Below, one piece after another: positions 2,487-63,414 of a stretch of DNA of 64,000 nt. Made by a program: the position numbers and the translations under genes. Origin of the DNA: Minisyncoccota bacterium (lineage in GTDB: Bacteria > Patescibacteriota > Minisyncoccia > Phycocordibacterales > UBA9973); contig JBAYVZ010000002.1 in NCBI GenBank assembly GCA_041674285.1, positions 14,600 through 78,599 on the forward strand, given 5' to 3'. How positions within the stretch are numbered: the first letter of the stretch is position 1; each line of letters starts with the position of its first letter. A model generated the notes under the pieces. That model saw only the letters and a program-made list of their open reading frames with translations, searched no databases and was not told where the DNA came from.

Positions 2487-3533
2487 TTATTTCTCAATAT
2501 TCAAAATCTTTATGAGTGCGAGTTCTAGTGGTAGCTCTTTGATACTACTGTGTCCAGACATTTGATATGCCTCGAGTAATATTAAAAGTGCACGAGATGA
2601 GATATGCTCTGGCTTTTCGAGGACTAGCTCCCCTAGGAATGTTTTATCCTTTTCTGAGAGGGGTATGATACTCGCCATCTTTGGCGCATAGCGTAGCAGT
2701 AATGCAGCACGCATCTTTACAAGTACCATCTTCATATATAGATGCATGTCACTATTCTGTGCAGAGACTGCATTGATAGCCATATACCCCCGCTCGATAT
2801 CATTGTGTGCGAGAGCTCGGAGAAAGTCATCTACTAGTGTGATATCCGGTGAGCCAGTCACTTCGAGGATTTGCTCCAAACTTATTTTTTTACTTTGTGA
2901 GAATGATATGACTTTTTGTAGAGTAGATTGTGCGTCACGAAAAGCTCCATCTGATATGAGTGCGATGACTTCTGCCCCACCTGCCTCGAGTGTATACCCT
3001 TCTTTCTTTGCAGTACTGCTGACCACATCAGCGAGAATTTTCTCTGTAGGTTTTTTGAAAGTAAAAGTCTGACATCGGGATACGATAGTCTCTGGTACTT
3101 TTGATAGCTCTGTTGTAGCGAGGATAAATACCACATATTCAGGTGGCTCCTCTATAGTCTTTAGCAGTGCATTCCATGCCTCTTTTGTCAGCATGTGCAC
3201 CTCGTCGAGGATGTAGACTTTGTATTTATAATCAAATGGCATAGTACGCACACTCTCACGGATATCACGAGCGTCTTCTATCTTTCTGTTACTTGCTGCA
3301 TCCATCTCGTAGATATCATTTACACTTGTACCTAGTTCGCGGGCGATGATACGTGCGATAGTAGTCTTGCCAGTACCACGTGGGCCGGATAGTAGATACG
3401 CATGAGCCACCTTCCCCGCTGCAAAGGCACCTCGGATAGCATTCACGATATGATCCTGACCTATCACCTCGTCAAAATTCTCGGGGCGGTACTTTGTATA
3501 TAGAGCGATATTTGATTCTTCTTTTTTAGACAT
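2487..3533 (-). CDS. dnaX: DNA polymerase III subunit gamma/tau, short form (clamp-loader ATPase)
   Basis: 348 aa; Walker A GPRGTGKTT, DEVHML, SRC motif (VSRCQ), clamp-loader domains I-III; no tau C-terminal domains. Confidence 0.85.
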   Translation of the reverse strand: MSKKEESNIALYTKYRPENFDEVIGQDHIVNAIRGAFAAGKVAHAYLLSGPRGTGKTTIARIIARELGTSVNDIYEMDAASNRKIEDARDIRESVRTMPFDYKYKVYILDEVHMLTKEAWNALLKTIEEPPEYVVFILATTELSKVPETIVSRCQTFTFKKPTEKILADVVSSTAKKEGYTLEAGGAEVIALISDGAFRDAQSTLQKVISFSQSKKISLEQILEVTGSPDITLVDDFLRALAHNDIERGYMAINAVSAQNSDMHLYMKMVLVKMRAALLLRYAPKMASIIPLSEKDKTFLGELVLEKPEHISSRALLILLEAYQMSGHSSIKELPLELALIKILNIEK

Positions 3534-3650
3534 CCCGTTAGAGATAGGTAATGATTACATTACCGTATCGAGTTAACATATAGTAATAAATACGACTTAC
3601 TTTAAATAATATCCCATAGATAGAAATAGAACAAACACATCTCTAACGGG
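3534..3650 (-). mobile_element. MITE-like element, copy 1 (117 bp, 12 bp terminal inverted repeats) inserted at the dnaX start codon
   Basis: TIR cccgttagagat/atctctaacggg; flanked by (a)cat/aacat duplication containing the ATG; internal hairpin ggtaatg-atta-cattacc; first 70 nt about 90% identical to copy 2. Confidence 0.6.
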
Positions 3651-3671
3651 AACATATTTAGAGTATACCAA

Positions 3672-17237: not shown

Positions 17238-17807
17238 TTATTGCTTAGGAGCAGTATTTAAATCTACTGGTGTATCTGTCTCTTTTGGATCGGCAGGTTT
17301 TACTTCGTCTGTGATTTTTGATTTTGATTGAATTTGTAAAATCACAAAACCATTTCCATAACTTTTTAAAATCTTTGCTTCGAATAAATCTGAGCCTAGC
17401 ATTACTTTGTATGAATCTTCTTTTCCTGTGAGATTATTCATCTCGATCAAAATTAATCCAGAATCAGAGATTACTACACCTTGGCCCAATGGTCTGATGG
17501 GGTCTATCGCTACGATATCTTTATCTTCCTCACTAGGTGTGACAACTACATAATTTTTATCATATACAGACACCAGCACAGCATTATCAGAAAGACTGAT
17601 TCCTTGCTTCTTTTCTTCAGATGGAACCTGAACGGTGGTCACCTTTTCTATCGTTCTCTGAATTACGTTATTAATAGTCTGAGTGGCGCTCTTTGGCATC
17701 TGATTCATCAGAGTCACAGTTACTATACCAGTAGCGATTGATACAACAAACGTTATTAATAAGGTCAATAATATAAGTTGGGTTTTGTTTAATTCTTTGA
17801 TATCCAT
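17238..17807 (-). CDS. hypothetical membrane-anchored/secreted protein
   Basis: 189 aa; N-terminal TM helix then soluble domain; no family recognised. Confidence 0.5.
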   Translation of the reverse strand: MDIKELNKTQLILLTLLITFVVSIATGIVTVTLMNQMPKSATQTINNVIQRTIEKVTTVQVPSEEKKQGISLSDNAVLVSVYDKNYVVVTPSEEDKDIVAIDPIRPLGQGVVISDSGLILIEMNNLTGKEDSYKVMLGSDLFEAKILKSYGNGFVILQIQSKSKITDEVKPADPKETDTPVDLNTAPKQ

Positions 17808-17926
17808 CCCGTTAGAGATAGGTAATGTTTACATTACCGTATCTTGTTAATATATAGTAAAAATACGACTTTCTTTTTTTATAAACCACCCCGAATTAGA
17901 AAGATAACAAGCGCATCTCTAACGGG
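17808..17926 (-). mobile_element. MITE-like element, copy 2 (119 bp) at the start codon of the 17238..17807 gene
   Basis: TIR cccgttagagat/atctctaacggg; atccat duplicated on both sides; internal hairpin ggtaatg-ttta-cattacc. Confidence 0.6.
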
Positions 17927-17959
17927 ATCCATTAGTTCAGTATAGCATAGCAGTCAAGC

Positions 17960-30743: not shown

Positions 30744-30787
30744 GTAATGGCAATAAATAATTGTAATATACATACTATTATACAATA

Positions 30788-30828
30788 CCCACAAAAAAAC
30801 ACCACGAATGTGGTGTTTTTTTGTGGGT
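30788..30828. terminator. bidirectional terminator (rpsR / BNR-protein gene)
   Basis: acaaaaaaacaccac-gaat-gtggtgtttttttgt. Confidence 0.75.
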
Positions 30829-30829
30829 A

Positions 30830-31030
30830 TTATTTTGCTACGTATGGTAGTAGACCCATGAATCTTGCGCGCTTTACAGCTTCTGCTAGCTTGCGTTGAT
30901 TTTTAGCTGTGACACTTGTGCGTCGGCGAGCCATCATCTTTGCAGCTGGAGACAAGAAACGTTTTAGCAATTCGATATCTTTATAATCGATATGCTTTAT
31001 GTTGTTTGAACTAAAGTAATCTTGTTTCAT
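30830..31030 (-). CDS. rpsR: 30S ribosomal protein bS18
   Basis: 66 aa; [12 protein letters not shown]...[18 protein letters not shown] matches the S18 signature. Confidence 0.85.
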
Positions 31031-31147
31031 CCCGTTAGAGATAGGAAGTCCTGAGACTTCCGTATCTTATTGATTATTGTTAATAATATAGACCTGAGTA
31101 TTTTTTGATACTACCCGATAAAGACATAACGAAACATCTCTAACGGG
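31031..31147 (-). mobile_element. MITE-like element, copy 3 (117 bp) filling the ssb-rpsR intergenic space
   Basis: TIR cccgttagagat/atctctaacggg; tttcat duplicated on both sides; internal hairpin ggaagtc-ctga-gacttcc (compensatory changes relative to copies 1 and 2). Confidence 0.6.
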
Positions 31148-31160
31148 ATTTCATAATTTT

Positions 31161-31610
31161 TTAGAATGGGATATCCTCTACATTGATTGCATCATCTGGG
31201 TATTCGATACTGTCCATTGATGAATCTTCTTTTGGAGCTGGTGCCCCAGGAGTAGAAGGTCTTGGGCTACCAGATGGTGATCCAGTAGAACCAAATTGTA
31301 CACGGTCAGCGATGACTTCAGTGCGATACTTCTTTGTACCAGTGCCTGCATCATCCCAACTTCTTGTCTGCATTCTTCCTTCAATCATAACCTGACTACC
31401 CTTTTTCATGTATTGAGCCACTGTTTCTGCTTGGCGTCCGAATACTACGATATTGTGATAATCAGCAGCTTCTTGTTTTGCACCATTTGCATCTTTCCAG
31501 ACACGATTAGTTGCTACAGAGAAACTACAAACTTTGATTCCAGAAGGCAGTGCCTTTATCTCTGGATCACGAGTCAAATTTCCGATAATAAATGCTTTGT
31601 TTAAGTACAT
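31161..31610 (-). CDS. ssb: single-stranded DNA-binding protein
   Basis: 149 aa; OB-fold N-terminus, Gly/Pro-rich linker, acidic C-terminal tip DIPF. Confidence 0.85.
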   Translation of the reverse strand: MYLNKAFIIGNLTRDPEIKALPSGIKVCSFSVATNRVWKDANGAKQEAADYHNIVVFGRQAETVAQYMKKGSQVMIEGRMQTRSWDDAGTGTKKYRTEVIADRVQFGSTGSPSGSPRPSTPGAPAPKEDSSMDSIEYPDDAINVEDIPF

Positions 31611-31724
31611 CCCGTTAGAAGCAGGAAATGTTTACATTTCCGTTACTTGGTTATTGTTATAATATCGACATAAATAGAATATTATTTATATTTACCCGCT
31701 CTAGCCATAAAAGCTTCTAACGGG
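31611..31724 (-). mobile_element. MITE-like element, copy 4 (114 bp) filling the rpsF-ssb intergenic space
   Basis: TIR cccgttagaagc/gcttctaacggg (perfect 12 bp, variant sequence); tacat duplicated; hairpin ggaaatg-ttta-catttcc. Confidence 0.6.
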
Positions 31725-31733
31725 ATACATATA

Positions 31734-32207
31734 TTATTCTAGCACGAGAGCGTCGATTTCTTTATCAACAGCCTCTTCATCGATCGGAGCCATCTCTGCC
31801 TCTGTCTTTGTGTGCGCTGGCTTGCGGCGTGGACCGTCAGCTTTGTATGCACGCTTTTGAGACATAGTATTCTCGCGAACAGTCTTGATCATGATGTAGC
31901 GGATGAATGTCTCATTCTTGTCCATCATGTCTTTGATAACAACTGCAGCTTCTGTATTTGTCTCAAACTTTACCCAGCCAAAGTATCCATAAGAAAACTT
32001 TTGCTTTTTGTTCATAATACTGCGACTCATTTCATATGCTAGTTCCATCATACGAGGATACTCATCTGAAATAAATGTCACACCTTTTGCAGTTAAAATA
32101 TCTTTAAATGCTGTAACTTCTGCACCTAGATTCTCTTCTGCGATAGAAGGAACCATAAGGTAACCTATCTCATACACACTTGTACGAGCTTTTGTTTCAT
32201 TTTCCAT
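31734..32207 (-). CDS. rpsF: 30S ribosomal protein bS6 with acidic C-terminal extension
   Basis: 157 aa; S6 fold-like N-terminus (YEIGYLMVPS); conserved rpsF-ssb-rpsR order. Confidence 0.65.
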   Translation of the reverse strand: MENETKARTSVYEIGYLMVPSIAEENLGAEVTAFKDILTAKGVTFISDEYPRMMELAYEMSRSIMNKKQKFSYGYFGWVKFETNTEAAVVIKDMMDKNETFIRYIMIKTVRENTMSQKRAYKADGPRRKPAHTKTEAEMAPIDEEAVDKEIDALVLE

Positions 32208-32341
32208 GATTTTTGCGTAAAAATACGCTTATAATTACTACTTTTAAAATACTGTTGTTGTGGACCTTTGTATCCCCGTTTTCAGTACGAGGATAAACGA
32301 CAGTAGAGTTATATTAGCAGAAAAACCCTATTTTGGCAAGG

Positions 32342-32411
32342 CCCGTTAGAAGCCGCCCCCGATAGTAATCGGGTGACTACGGTCACCCTGGGGCGACCTG
32401 CTTCTAACGGG
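32342..32411 (-). mobile_element. MITE-like element, copy 7 (70 bp, GC-rich interior)
   Basis: same TIR as copy 4 (cccgttagaagc/gcttctaacggg); flanked by caagg direct repeat; interior forms nested hairpins (cccga-tagtaa-tcggg, gtgac-tacg-gtcac); not at a start codon. Confidence 0.55.
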
Positions 32412-37927: not shown

Positions 37928-39225
37928 TTATCCCAATTTTTCTTTTATATAATCCACGAGTTCTATGATCGCAATACGTTCCTGAGTGCCAGTATCACGA
38001 TCTCGGATAGTCACTGTATCATCAGTCAGAGTATCAAAGTCGATGACTATACACCATGGTGTACCTATCTCGTCTTGTCTTCTGTATCTCTTTCCAATAT
38101 TTCCATTGTCATCCCACATCACACGGCCGAATTCATTCTTGAGCGTGCCGTATACCATACGAGCTTTTTCGATGAGTTCTGGCTTGTTCTTCAATAGTGG
38201 TGACACAGCGCAGACAACCGGTGCTATATGCGGAGCAAATTTTAGATAGCTACGCACCTCCCCATCCTTGTCATCTTCCATATATGCAGATGTCAGCAGT
38301 GCGAGTACGGTACGATCTACACCAAAAGATGGCTCAATAACATGAGGGATAAATTTTTGAGCAGTCTCCTCATCTTGATATGAAAGATTATGAATTTTTA
38401 AATCAAAATCTGTTCTATATGCAAGACCATATAGTTCCTTTCTCCCAAAAGGAAAATCAAACTCAAAATCCACAGTACGTGAAGAGTAGTGAGCAAGGTC
38501 CCCCTCTGCTACTTCTAGCTCGTGAACCTTTGTCATATCGATGCCGATACTATCCATCCACTCTATCATCTCCTCTTTAAAGAAAGTAAAATACTTTTCC
38601 CAATCATCAGGTCGGACAAAATACTCTATCTCCATCTGCTCTATCTCGCGCACACGAAATATAAAATCGCGAGGGGTGATCTCATTGCGGAAAGCTTTAC
38701 CGATCTGACCGATACCAAATGGTAGCTTTGGATGGAATGAGTCTACAATATTTTTGAAGTTTACAAATATACCCTGTGCGGTCTCTGGACGTAGATATAC
38801 AGTCGCTGCACTATCCTCTACTGCACCAATCTTTGTAGAGAACATCATATTAAAATTACGAGCTTCACCTGTCGGAGCACCACAATCATCACACTTGCCT
38901 GATACAGCTAGATTATCTTCACGGAATCTTTTTTTACATTTTGTACATTCTACAAGTGGATCAGTAAAAGTATCCACATGGCCAGAGGCCATCCATACAC
39001 CTGGATGCATCAATATAGCAGCATCCACTTCATACATATCATTGCGAGACGAGACAAATTTCTTTCTCCATCCATCCTTGATATTATTCTTCAACATGAC
39101 ACCTAGTGGACCATAGTCAAATGTACCCGCTAGACCTCCATATACCTCAGAGCCTGATATACAAAGCCTCTTCGTTTGCAGAGAGAGATTATCTTCTCCA
39201 TTAGTTTATCATCGTTTTTATCCAT
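37928..39225 (-). CDS. glyS: glycyl-tRNA synthetase (class II, GlyQS type) with apparent 1-nt frameshift near codon 24
   Basis: N-terminal 32-codon ORF (39130..39225, MDKNDDKLMEKIISLCKRRGFVYQ...) and main ORF 37928..39097 both match GlyRS (RRGFV / SGSEVYGGLAGTFDYGPLG); restoring one C near 39155 joins them. Confidence 0.75.
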
Positions 39226-39342
39226 CCCGTACGAAATAGGAAATGTTTACATTTCCGTATTTAATTATAGTTATCATTAATAATACCGACTAAGTCTATT
39301 ATTAGAAATCCGTAGAAACATGACATACACATTTCGTACGGG
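39226..39342 (-). mobile_element. MITE-like element, copy 5 (117 bp) at the glyS start codon
   Basis: TIR cccgtacgaaat/atttcgtacggg (third variant); atccat duplicated; hairpin ggaaatg-ttta-catttcc. Confidence 0.6.
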
Positions 39343-42316: not shown

Positions 42317-42350
42317 GGTAAATATTGATGCGATAGCATCAATATTTACC
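42317..42350. terminator. hairpin terminator, paralog A (14 bp stem)
   Basis: ggtaaatattgatgc-gata-gcatcaatatttacc with flanking A6/T4; the 3' arm contains the stop codon of the 42346 gene. Confidence 0.65.
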
Positions 42351-42843
42351 TTTTGTATTTACTATGTAAACTATAATCTTTAGCTAATTTAAAAGTTTTC
42401 ACCCCATCTTCAATTCCTATTTTCTTAACATAATCAACAAACTCTTTTGGTAATGGTGACGGGCCCACCCAGACACTCTTTTGAACCATAATATAATCAA
42501 ATGATCTTAATTGTTTTCTTAGCCAATTACGCTCCGAATTCTTACTAGAAGGCACATCGAACATTAATAGCAAATTCTTTGGTGCCCCGTCTTTAAATGG
42601 TGATTCAAAATTTTTGAATTCTAGATATTTTTTTATCTTGCACTCCTTTCCCTTCTTTGTTATAAACCAACCATTTTCGTCTTTATCTATTAATCCATTT
42701 TTCTTTAATTGATATGCTGTAGACTTAAGAGAGTTGTAATTTTTACTTGAAAGACGAGGTATACCAAAAATATTTACACGAACTCCTTTGTAATTTAATT
42801 CAGTATTCCATAATTCAGTTAAAATATTTTCAACCAAACTCAT
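42346..42843 (-). CDS. winged-helix + Cas2-like (PaaX_C-like) domain protein, putative transcriptional regulator
   Basis: 165 aa; N-terminal wHTH (STAYQLKKNGLIDKDENGWFITKKG) and C-terminal LLLMFDVP...RNWLRKQLRSFDYIMVQKSVWV resembling the Cas2 core; no cas1 or CRISPR array nearby. Confidence 0.5.
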   Translation of the reverse strand: MSLVENILTELWNTELNYKGVRVNIFGIPRLSSKNYNSLKSTAYQLKKNGLIDKDENGWFITKKGKECKIKKYLEFKNFESPFKDGAPKNLLLMFDVPSSKNSERNWLRKQLRSFDYIMVQKSVWVGPSPLPKEFVDYVKKIGIEDGVKTFKLAKDYSLHSKYKR

Positions 42844-62073: not shown

Positions 62074-63297
62074 TTATTCATACCTCAGGGCTTCAATGGG
62101 ATTGAGCTTTGAAGCTTTTTTTGCAGGATAATAACCAAATACAATACCAATAGCAGCAGAGACACCAAATGACAACAAGACAGAAGATACAGATACAGTA
62201 GTCTGAAGTATCCCCAACTTGGAAACAAGCGCCGAGACACCCCACCCGAGAGCCACACCTATGACACCTCCGATAAATGTCAGCATTATGGCTTCGATTA
62301 AAAATTGACGATTTATATCACGACGCTGTGCACCGATAGCTTTGCGTAGGCCAATCTCCCGAGTACGCTCGGTTACAGTAGTGAGCATCATATTCATGAT
62401 GCCGATACCTCCTACTACCAATGATATACCCGCAACAGCAGCTAGTAATATAGTAAATGTACCAGTGACAGAGGAAGCTGTAGCTATGATATCTGCTTGA
62501 TTCAAAGTAGAAAAATCTGCAGCAGAAGGGTCAGTAATATCATGACGCGACAACAACAGATTAGTAATTTCTGATTGTACGACAGTAGTGGTATCTGCGT
62601 CCTCTGCACTGACAGAGATACTAGACACATACTCATCCCCAGAAAGAAACTTTTGAGCAGTTGTGACTGGAATAAAAATCATATCATCTGAATTCTGAAA
62701 ACCAGATCCACCTTTTGATCGAGTTACACCTATAACTTTAAAATTAATTTGTTTTATTTTTATGGTCTTGCCGATAGGATCAGTATCTTCACCAAACAAA
62801 TCCACCTGAACGGTAGGACCGATGACTGCAACTTTGGCTGAGCTGTCTACATTTTGATCGGTAATAAATGATCCATTATCTACAAATAAATTACGGACAT
62901 CTGAATACGAGGCAGTGGTACCTACTACTGATGTATTTGTATTTGTACCTTTTGCAGATACTTGATATCGACTAGTAACTTCGGGTGATACAGACCGAAC
63001 CCCAACTATACCGGACTGTATAGCATACGCATCATCTAGAGTTAGACTCTTGGCAGTACCTCTACCACCACTAACTTGAAATCCAGGTCCACGAGCCGTA
63101 CCCGGAGTCACTATAATTAAGTTAGATCCGATTGATTGTATTGATGCCTGAATCGAGGACTGAGCCCCTTGACCGATAGCTGTCATAGCGATTACGGATG
63201 CGATACCAATAACGATACCGAGCATAGTCAGACCTGATCGGATTTTGTTACTGGATAGTGCAATCCATGTCTCTTCTAAAATATCTTTTGTTTTCAT
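62074..63297 (-). CDS. ABC transporter permease (FtsX/MacB family)
   Basis: 407 aa; N-terminal TM, large periplasmic domain, 3 C-terminal TM helices (FtsX domain). Confidence 0.8.
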   Translation of the reverse strand: MKTKDILEETWIALSSNKIRSGLTMLGIVIGIASVIAMTAIGQGAQSSIQASIQSIGSNLIIVTPGTARGPGFQVSGGRGTAKSLTLDDAYAIQSGIVGVRSVSPEVTSRYQVSAKGTNTNTSVVGTTASYSDVRNLFVDNGSFITDQNVDSSAKVAVIGPTVQVDLFGEDTDPIGKTIKIKQINFKVIGVTRSKGGSGFQNSDDMIFIPVTTAQKFLSGDEYVSSISVSAEDADTTTVVQSEITNLLLSRHDITDPSAADFSTLNQADIIATASSVTGTFTILLAAVAGISLVVGGIGIMNMMLTTVTERTREIGLRKAIGAQRRDINRQFLIEAIMLTFIGGVIGVALGWGVSALVSKLGILQTTVSVSSVLLSFGVSAAIGIVFGYYPAKKASKLNPIEALRYE

Positions 63298-63414
63298 CCC
63301 GTATGAAATAGGAAATGTCTACATTTCCGTATTTAATTATATTCATCATTAATAATACCGACTGAGTTTATCTTTTAAATCCGTAAAAAATAAAACAAAC
63401 ACATTTCGTACGGG
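63298..63414 (-). mobile_element. MITE-like element, copy 6 (117 bp) at the permease start codon
   Basis: TIR cccgtatgaaat/atttcgtacggg (T.G wobble on the plus strand only); ttcat duplicated; interior about 80% identical to copy 5. Confidence 0.6.

Follow-up and report, generated by a model that had tools for sequence, protein, structure and literature searches.

Bacterial MITEs (miniature inverted-repeat transposable elements), such as the Correia elements (CREE) of Neisseria and ERIC/IRU of enterobacteria, are approximately 100–150 bp long, carry terminal inverted repeats, are flanked by a short target duplication, and contain no open reading frame (ORF). They are present in many copies, differ in presence or absence between strains, occur inside transcription units, and form long RNA hairpins. 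Here we describe elements that share all of these properties. Two of them occupy the spacers of the rpsF-ssb-rpsR operon in a stretch of 64,000 nucleotides from a Minisyncoccota (Patescibacteriota) genome (NCBI GenBank assembly GCA_041674285.1, contig JBAYVZ010000002.1, positions 14,600 to 78,599 of the forward strand), the whole of which we call the window. Judged by their sequence, they are small, non-autonomous mobile DNA of about 117 nt without coding capacity, and they fill both spacers. They belong to a widespread family of small mobile palindromic elements that occupies and rebuilds the start codons of Patescibacteria and is, as far as we found, undescribed. A literature search that included the end sequences as text returned no description of the family, with subscription journals mostly outside its coverage. 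Rfam at the gathering threshold recovered only four tRNAs from the window, and at E ≤ 10 the best sub-threshold matches in the operon (E 1.7–5.4) were noise, with no family for the element.

Several features set the family apart from CREE, ERIC, and IRU. The sequences are unrelated, and the target duplication is mostly a 4-bp TGNN rather than TA. Unlike these MITEs, the elements target the start codon itself and provide the first base of the rebuilt codon, are without a known parent insertion sequence, and are hosted by Patescibacteria and a few other uncultured phyla. The Correia element, which has a 26-bp inverted repeat (TATAGTGGATTAA..), duplicates TA, and is found in Neisseria, is ruled out by its different ends, duplication, and host. 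Rickettsia palindromic elements (RPE) offer another parallel: they, too, are small mobile palindromes of a reduced genome, and they survive despite scarce spacer DNA by leaving the host gene in working order. However, RPE insertions are in frame and become translated protein sequence, whereas the elements described here stay outside the protein by means of the start-codon duplication.

Repetitive extragenic palindromic (REP) sequences and REPINs, which are moved by REP-associated tyrosine transposases (RAYTs), resemble the elements in their inverted conserved ends, variable spacer, compensated long hairpin, high copy number, and short single-hairpin versions. REP/REPIN sequences are defined by a GTAG/CGTC tag on a palindrome of 20–40 nt and by the lack of a duplication. 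In contrast, the ends of the present elements, written (T/C)CCCGTTAGA, are not themselves palindromes and have no such tag, and the target duplications are true ones. The elements lie at gene starts, whereas REPINs are found mostly after genes, and no RAYT gene was recognised among the ORFs between neighbouring copies, as judged by eye without a domain scan. Palindrome-associated elements of the IS200/IS605 type, which have no inverted ends and no duplication and sit 3' of a fixed tetra- or pentanucleotide, were likewise rejected, since the elements have perfect inverted ends and real duplications. REP/REPIN and IS200/IS605 elements are not known to make target duplications.

Integron attC sites are also similar at first sight. 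They comprise 57–141 nt, are conserved in structure and variable in sequence, and have only their ends conserved. The GTTAGAR/YTCTAAC of the elements fits the attC core consensus GTTRRRY/RYYYAAC at six of seven positions. This identity was rejected because the order of the motifs is reversed (GTTAGAR first and YTCTAAC last, on either strand), the flanks are syntenic core genes, and there is no integrase.

The operon spacers and the copies in the window

The operon lies on the minus strand of the window, in which positions are counted from the first letter. It encodes ribosomal protein S6 (rpsF, 31734..32207, PF01250 Ribosomal_S6), the single-stranded DNA-binding protein (ssb, 31161..31610, PF00436 SSB), and ribosomal protein S18 (rpsR, 30830..31030, PF01084 Ribosomal_S18). 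The identities are the Pfam labels of the same genes on the public contig, and the coordinates were read from the sequence. The spacer that follows the rpsF stop codon (TAA, 31736-31734) is 123 nt long, and the one that follows the ssb stop codon (TAA, 31163-31161) is 130 nt long. An initial annotation of this region held that both spacers consist entirely of inverted-repeat elements, with the ATG of an upstream ORF 3 nt after the rpsF stop and 6 nt after the ssb stop. Both statements were borne out from the sequence, as each spacer is made up of 3 or 6 nt, a duplicated start-codon segment, and one element.

In the rpsF-ssb spacer, TAT (31733-31731) is followed by ATG (31730-31728), TA + T, and the core CCCG..CGGG of copy c4 (31611..31724, minus strand, 114 nt, 94.7 bits), after which the ssb ATG begins at 31610. 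The core runs CCCGTTAGAAGC...GCTTCTAACGGG; these perfect 12-mers are its 5' arm (31724-31713) and 3' arm (31622-31611), and an internal hairpin, GGAAATGTAAACATTTCC, adjoins the latter. We count the outermost pair of bases, T(31725)/A(31610), as belonging to the element. The old ssb start codon and the left copy of the target duplication (A+TGTA) together span 31726..31730, and the working start codon and right copy (TGTA) occupy 31606..31610, with the A at 31610 as the last base of c4; the direct repeat reads ATGTA/ATGTA. The old ATG opens an ORF of nine codons (31730..31701) that passes through the 5' arm.

The ssb-rpsR spacer has the same order, with AAAATT (31160-31155), ATG (31154-31152), AAA + T, the core of copy c3 (31031..31147, minus strand, 117 nt, 119.2 bits), and the rpsR ATG at 31030. 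This core runs CCCGTTAGAGAT...ATCTCTAACGGG, again perfect 12-mer arms (31147-31136 and 31042-31031), and its internal hairpin, GGAAGTCTCAGGACTTCC, carries compensatory changes relative to other copies. The old rpsR start codon and left duplication copy (A+TGAAA) span 31149..31154, the working start codon (element A + TG) and right copy span 31025..31030, and the direct repeat reads ATGAAA/ATGAAA. Here, the old ATG opens an ORF of four codons (31154..31140), stopped by a TAG within the 5' arm. The 12-bp terminal inverted repeats of both operon elements start with CCCGTTAGA.

Comparisons drew on a sister strain (L002), which has an identical Ssb protein and 97.6% identical ssb DNA, on a related species (L125, GCA_026396015.1), whose Ssb is 95% identical, and on further relatives. 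Relatives without the element keep the Ssb N-terminus MYLNK. Element-free orthologous ssb sites read ..ATGTAC/ATGTAT.., and element-free rpsR starts read ..TTTATGAAACAAGAC. In three relatives, both operon spacers are approximately 28 nt long and conserved in sequence; the residual spacers of 3 and 6 nt in the window lineage fit a tighter coupling to the old AUG.

Both c3 and c4 are very probably part of a single rpsF-ssb-rpsR mRNA. The only promoter-like site on the operon strand (32311..32339, minus strand; TTGCCA-17-TAATAT, preceded by TG) lies upstream of rpsF, and a palindromic terminator follows rpsR (30784..30831). The scan assigned this terminator to the plus strand; from the sequence, we ourselves read it on the minus strand as CACCAC-ATTC-GTGGTG with seven T behind it. 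No promoter-like or terminator-like site was found in the scan inside c3 or c4 on the operon strand. An internal promoter that yields separate transcripts was rejected on this ground, and both elements must therefore tolerate read-through, which supports the transcription through both copies envisaged in the initial annotation.

The rpsF leader (32208-32310, minus strand) holds a hairpin of its own, ..ATCCTCGTACTGAAAACGGGGATACAAAGGTCCA.., whose conservation extends to L002 and L125 and, in looser form, to L127. It matched no Rfam family, and it may be an S6:S18 autoregulatory leader. Other inserts are found in the same operon elsewhere. A different palindromic repeat, with GTTTCTAG / CTAGAAC units, occupies both spacers in L125 (9912-10000 and 10454-10541), and a G+C-rich hairpin lies in the ssb-rpsR spacer of a third relative (L128, GCA_040384425.1, 7398-7462), which suggests that the operon spacers are hot spots for small structured inserts.

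Counting those with variant arms, the window contains seven copies of the element, each of them on the minus strand. The 9-mer CCCGTTAGA is present as an exact match 10 times, every time in inverted pairs, and by our calculation from base composition about 0.3 occurrences are expected. Copy c1 (3534..3650, flanks ATGT/ATGT) abuts the start of a DNA polymerase III delta'-like (holB-like) gene (2487..3533), with the old ATG at 3655-3653, and c2 (17808..17926, flanks ATGGAT/ATGGAT) abuts the start of a gene for a 189-aa protein (17238..17807). Two copies have variant arms: c6 (39226..39342; arms CCCGTACGAAAT, flanks ATGGAT/ATGGAT), which abuts the glyS start, and c7 (63298..63414, flanks ATGAAT/ATGAAA), located between an ABC-transporter ATPase gene and an ftsX/macB-like permease gene (62074..63297). 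The six long copies have a mean column identity of 73% on their alignment and share a hairpin beside the gene-proximal arm, with compensatory changes. The seventh, c5 (32342..32411), is a short, G+C-rich form of 70 nt with arms as in c4. It is not located at a start codon; it follows immediately on the stop codon of a tatD-like gene, and its other side borders on the -35 box of the rpsF promoter.

The upstream ORFs of five window copies comprise 4, 9, 17, 22, and 24 codons, and the old AUG lies 3 (c4), 6 (c3), 3 (c6), and 5 nt (c7) from the upstream stop codon. A conserved leader peptide was rejected, as the ORFs use three frames relative to the element. Their common MNPVR/MDPVR beginning results from the duplication together with the arm sequence. 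The short upstream ORFs of the initial annotation are thus present, but they are neither designed nor conserved as peptides, and their ATG is the ancestral start codon left by the insertion.

At about position 39153, within glyS (minus strand), the window lacks one A of the public contig (GTATATCAAGGCTCTGAG versus GTATATCAGGCTCTGAG). The gene is thereby split in the window into a stub of 31 codons and an ORF of 389 codons, and on the public contig it is intact (432 aa).

Mobility, family, and target sites

Closely related genomes provide clean empty sites. For c5, the sister strain L002 reads ..ATAGCCTTGCCAAAA.., as against ..ATAACCTTG[G CCCG..CGGG]CCTTGCCAAAA.. in the window, and for c6, the glyS gene of L125 reads ..AAAGTAATATATGGATACAAAC.., as against ..TATATGGAT[CCCG..CGGG]ATGGATAAAAAC. 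L002 also lacks c4, and its rpsF-ssb spacer consists of TAG + 28 nt + ATGTAC. By these empty sites, the flanking repeats are evidently insertion target duplications. Copy c3 is present in L002, identical at 117 of 117 positions, and is therefore older than c4 and c5; it is absent from L125, L127, and L128. Over 58 kb of syntenic DNA in three related species, neither a pattern search nor a covariance model detected the element. The element family has multiplied recently in this Nomurabacteria-like genome and has spread over many candidate-phyla lineages. At one further locus (L025, 5893-6284), three elements stand in tandem with ATGAAT between them, one with variant arms (CCCGTAGT), as would result from repeated insertion into a regenerated target.

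We scanned a collection of species genomes for CCCGTTAGAR-N(85-115)-YTCTAACGGG, a pattern that leaves the flanks free, and obtained at least 119 loci, overwhelmingly from Patescibacteria among the matches listed. These matches include Saccharibacteria and many Paceibacteria lineages, Nomurabacteria among them; Uhr-, Falkow-, Kerfeld-, Levyi-, and Berkelbacteria and Kazan are further hosts, and a minority comes from Omnitrophota, Planctomycetota, and a few other phyla. A viral collection, searched with carriage by phages in mind, gave two matches only. Most sampled copies are approximately 104–134 nt long (114–119 nt for the long copies of the window), short versions range from 24 to 81 nt, and minimal hairpins of 24–30 nt carry the same ends. 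In nearly all copies, the arms are perfect over 12–16 bp and extended by one or two pairs. The terminal inverted repeats read Y-CCCGTTAGARNN...

The flanks follow a simple rule. A perfect 4-bp repeat at offset 1 is found in 103 of the 147 copies with paired ends, and in 102 of these, one additional base on the left complements the base just beyond the right end. Read most simply, the element is Y-CCCG..CGGG-R, and the target duplication (TGNN) that it makes mostly comprises 4 bp. Its last base (A or G) would then be the first base of the start codon now used, and the left copy retains the old ATG. The base before the left repeat differs from this last base, the one after the right end, in 13 of the 103 copies, at least eight of which read ATGAAC..GTGAA, with ATG as the old start and GTG as the new one; a subfamily with C..G ends would thus turn ATG starts into GTG starts. 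In other phyla, the flanks are mostly GTAAAC..GTAAA. Loci from Omnitrophota, Planctomycetota, and delta-proteobacterial genomes (L009, L024, L043, L045, L060, L086, L104, and others) have GTAAAC..GTAAA or GCAAAC..GCAAA flanks. A few bases further on, several of these non-Patescibacteria loci have an ATG or a ribosome-binding sequence that resembles AAGG(T/G)GA, and the copies are near, not at, the start codon.

Most of what characterises a MITE is found here. The elements are short and non-coding with terminal inverted repeats, their target duplications are verified by empty sites, and their copies are dispersed (seven in 64 kb) and polymorphic between strains. A related autonomous element with a transposase is lacking. 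No matching ends 0.2–6 kb apart enclose a transposase-like ORF in approximately 1 Mb of loci, a sample that is small and biased to short copies. Solitary ends and the ORFs between neighbouring copies gave no autonomous partner, and no transposase domain was present among the window proteins scanned with Pfam or among the available gene labels.

These results bear on the view in the initial annotation that the elements form a purpose-built cis-regulatory module of the operon, serving translational coupling or RNA processing. Their position exactly between stop and start codons, the sequestered start codons described below, the reduction of ancestral 28-nt spacers to 3 and 6 nt in this lineage, and the presence of other hairpin inserts in the same two spacers of related species would all be in keeping with such a module. 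However, the same element precedes unrelated genes (the holB-like gene, the 189-aa protein gene, glyS, and the ftsX-like permease gene) and is known from more than 100 other species. Close strains also differ in whether they carry it, target duplications flank it, and three related species lack it in this very operon. As an account of origin, an operon-specific module is largely refuted, and we consider it very improbable; a weaker form would be secondary recruitment of the elements to set SSB and S18 levels.

Start codons are strongly over-represented as target sites. An ATG, GTG, or TTG abuts exactly one end in 105 of the 147 copies, where chance predicts approximately 9%, and 92 of these 105 lead into an ORF that is 50 or more codons long, compared with 27% of random ATGs. 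In a slightly broader re-scan of the loci and the window (153 copies), the start of an ORF of at least 50 codons was abutted by 92 of 129 copies in Patescibacteria and by 1 of 24 in other phyla. Start-codon abutment in Patescibacteria is far above the level predicted by motif preference. By rough gene calls, the loci have 375 ATGRR sites at called starts and 1349 in non-coding DNA away from such starts; for plain ATG, the corresponding numbers are 858 and 4922.

The location at start codons could also reflect a loose ATGRR preference followed by selection. Insertions within genes are then taken as lethal and those in promoters or leaders as harmful, so that only insertions that rebuild a start codon survive. 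This has some appeal, because the sequence upstream of the ATG shows no extended target motif in the DNA (no position exceeds 0.3 bit), c5 occupies a non-ATG site, copies in other phyla use GTAAA targets away from start codons, and both orientations exist. However, the TG of the ATG is invariably where the target duplication begins, even though the gene would also be preserved at several other offsets. In addition, all six ATG-type copies of the window are at true starts with four different second codons, although non-start ATGs outnumber starts by about 6:1 in non-coding DNA. We therefore regard selection acting on a loose preference as possible, but doubtful. Recognition of the start site and adaptation of the element to be harmless only there are both kept as readings.

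Element structure and translation of the downstream genes

The initial annotation placed a 12-bp stem that ends directly at the downstream AUG. The perfect 12-mer arms stand, but the stem runs further. In the minimum-free-energy folds of c3 and c4, it gains 2–3 pairs, among them those of the A and the U in the downstream AUG; in the ssb copy (c4), all three bases of the codon are paired (A-U, U-A, and G-U to the G). The start codon is thus predicted to be buried, not merely adjacent to the stem. Folding energies for c3 and c4 are -37 to -40 kcal/mol, with z scores of -4.1 to -4.7 against dinucleotide shuffles, none of 200 of which is as stable; the short c5 reaches z = -7.3.

A covariance model built from the window copies identified 49 relatives in the first 100 sources. 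In the alignment of these relatives, whose fitting to the covariance model favours structure, 97% of cells are paired, and none of 500 shuffles reaches the observed covariation; slid controls also remain far below it. Outer-stem positions 10–13 and all seven pairs of the subterminal hairpin change on both sides, almost entirely between Watson-Crick pairs. G-U pairs are rare, are balanced by A-C, and are not strand-biased once one unconstrained position is removed. The folded single strand is apparently under selection, with RNA and DNA alike possible.

The elements are also oriented: 46 copies have the hairpin end on the gene-proximal side and 4 have it on the distal side. This bias indicates directional insertion or selection at the RNA level. 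On the plus strand (31044-31061), the internal hairpin of c3 read in antisense, followed by GTATCTTATT, scores as terminator-like, and polar effects of copies lying the other way round could be partly responsible for the bias.

Compensated pairing of this kind would be expected if the elements moved as single-stranded DNA hairpins, by means of a RAYT or another HUH enzyme, or were handled by a site-specific recombinase acting on joined ends, with no DDE cut-and-paste. The minimal hairpin versions, the constancy of the ends around a highly variable interior, and the orientation bias point in the same direction as the covariation. Against this, the target duplications are real, as shown by the empty sites, there is no GTAG or CGTC tag, and no gene for such an enzyme was seen near the elements. 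We consider single-strand movement unlikely.

How ssb and rpsR are translated across these stems depends on how initiation takes place in this organism. Gene starts in the window have no Shine-Dalgarno-like sequences, and many genes have TGnTAnAAT 5–7 nt before the ATG (the gene starts examined include window positions 3656-3671 and 17933-17950, and L001 and L123). Such extended -10 boxes suggest that leaderless mRNAs are widespread. The old ATGs of c1 and c2 likewise have a TGnTATACT box 6 nt upstream (TGGTATACT and TGCTATACT, respectively).

Translational opening of the stem, as put forward in the initial annotation, is supported as a reasonable mechanism, since the downstream AUG is predicted to be sequestered. 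Because the organism lacks Shine-Dalgarno sequences and has leaderless-type starts, a relay is the most likely route to translation and the mechanism that we prefer. Within the single mRNA, the ssb and rpsR AUGs would be hidden by a stem of 14–15 bp. Ribosomes that complete rpsF (or ssb) would restart at the old AUG, 3 (or 6) nt farther on, and read 9 (or 4) codons into the 5' arm. This would melt the stem and free the real AUG for the same or another ribosome. Related arrangements are known from masking hairpins that couple translation (RNA-phage coat/replicase genes and erm leader peptides) and from the split ribosome-binding site of T4 gene 38, where a stem conceals a start codon and an upstream ribosome reads the opposite arm. 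In contrast to those systems, the arrangement predicted here is made in one transposition step and is repeated at many unrelated genes. The element would then be a tolerated parasite for which start codons offer safety in a genome short of spacer DNA, and no regulator made for the operon. Taken together, this explanation (a mobile start-codon element, a translational relay, and a tolerated parasite) is, in our judgement, the probable one.

A number of observations weigh against this explanation. No transposase or longer autonomous version was found in the loci searched, and the mode of movement is therefore unproven. Neither the 46:4 orientation bias nor the start-codon specificity is explained by any upstream sequence consensus. 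The strand test of RNA folding is weak: G-U pairs are nearly absent, and the sense strand is favoured by 1.4 kcal/mol (p = 0.02). In about 10 of 91 oriented copies, a recognisable old start codon has been lost, and the relay therefore cannot be universal. Upstream ORFs show no greater tendency to stay open than a comparable frame (23/81 versus 15/81, excluding the arm frame that is closed by TAG), and short residual spacers are only weakly enriched across the family (42% versus 30%, p = 0.048).

Selection for upstream ORFs that reach the new start was rejected, because the apparent excess (23/81 versus 15/162) vanishes when the TAG-closed frame is set aside. Translational bypassing was also considered; its support consists of matching codons on both sides of the element and nothing further.

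RNA processing could expose the start codons in another way. A cut in the stem by an RNase III-like endonuclease would leave ssb and rpsR mRNAs that begin a few bases before the AUG and are read as leaderless messages, and the element would act like an intron that is cut out but left un-religated. The 23S rRNA intervening sequences and the Correia elements of Neisseria are established RNase III substrates. The near-universal perfect stems of 12–16 bp, with their one or two additional pairs, the frequency of leaderless-type gene starts in this genome, and the copies without an old start codon are all compatible with processing. However, the stems fall below the approximately two helical turns favoured by well-studied RNase III enzymes, and cleavage would uncouple S6 and S18, which are a functional pair. 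We think it improbable that processing takes the place of the relay.

A more speculative extension of the mobile-element explanation is that the elements have become adapted to seek out start codons as refuges in genomes almost devoid of spacer DNA, with a self-contained harmlessness that makes each copy a 'translational intron' suited to bacteria with leaderless starts and no Shine-Dalgarno sites. The old AUG would be left as the ribosome entry point, the element would supply the first base of the new AUG, and its fold would let upstream translation or stem cleavage hand the ribosome on. We put this forward tentatively. If it is true, such target specificity and host accommodation are undescribed for bacterial transposable elements.

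Wider implications and neighbouring loci

If our explanation is true, small transposable elements are active even in bacterial genomes of the most streamlined kind, where they persist by occupying start codons, the one position where the duplication repairs the damage. Genes for SSB, S18, glycyl-tRNA synthetase, and a clamp-loader subunit, all of them essential, would be expressed from AUGs buried in stems of 14–15 bp without a Shine-Dalgarno sequence, and these buried AUGs would provide a natural, repeated test case for initiation in organisms that lack such sequences. For gene callers and operon predictors, 120-nt 'spacers' in such genomes would have to be read as insertions, and some GTG starts as element-made. 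Since copies differ between close strains, the family could also serve as a strain marker for uncultured Patescibacteria.

Two further observations concern neighbouring genes. In L002 (1477-1848), two additional genes lie between metG and tatD, one of which has a DUF559 / MTES_1575 endonuclease-like domain; this is a strain-level difference in the same neighbourhood as the operon. In the window, a 165-aa protein (42346-42843, minus strand) matches the Cas2-like central domain of PaaX and CRISPR_Cas2.

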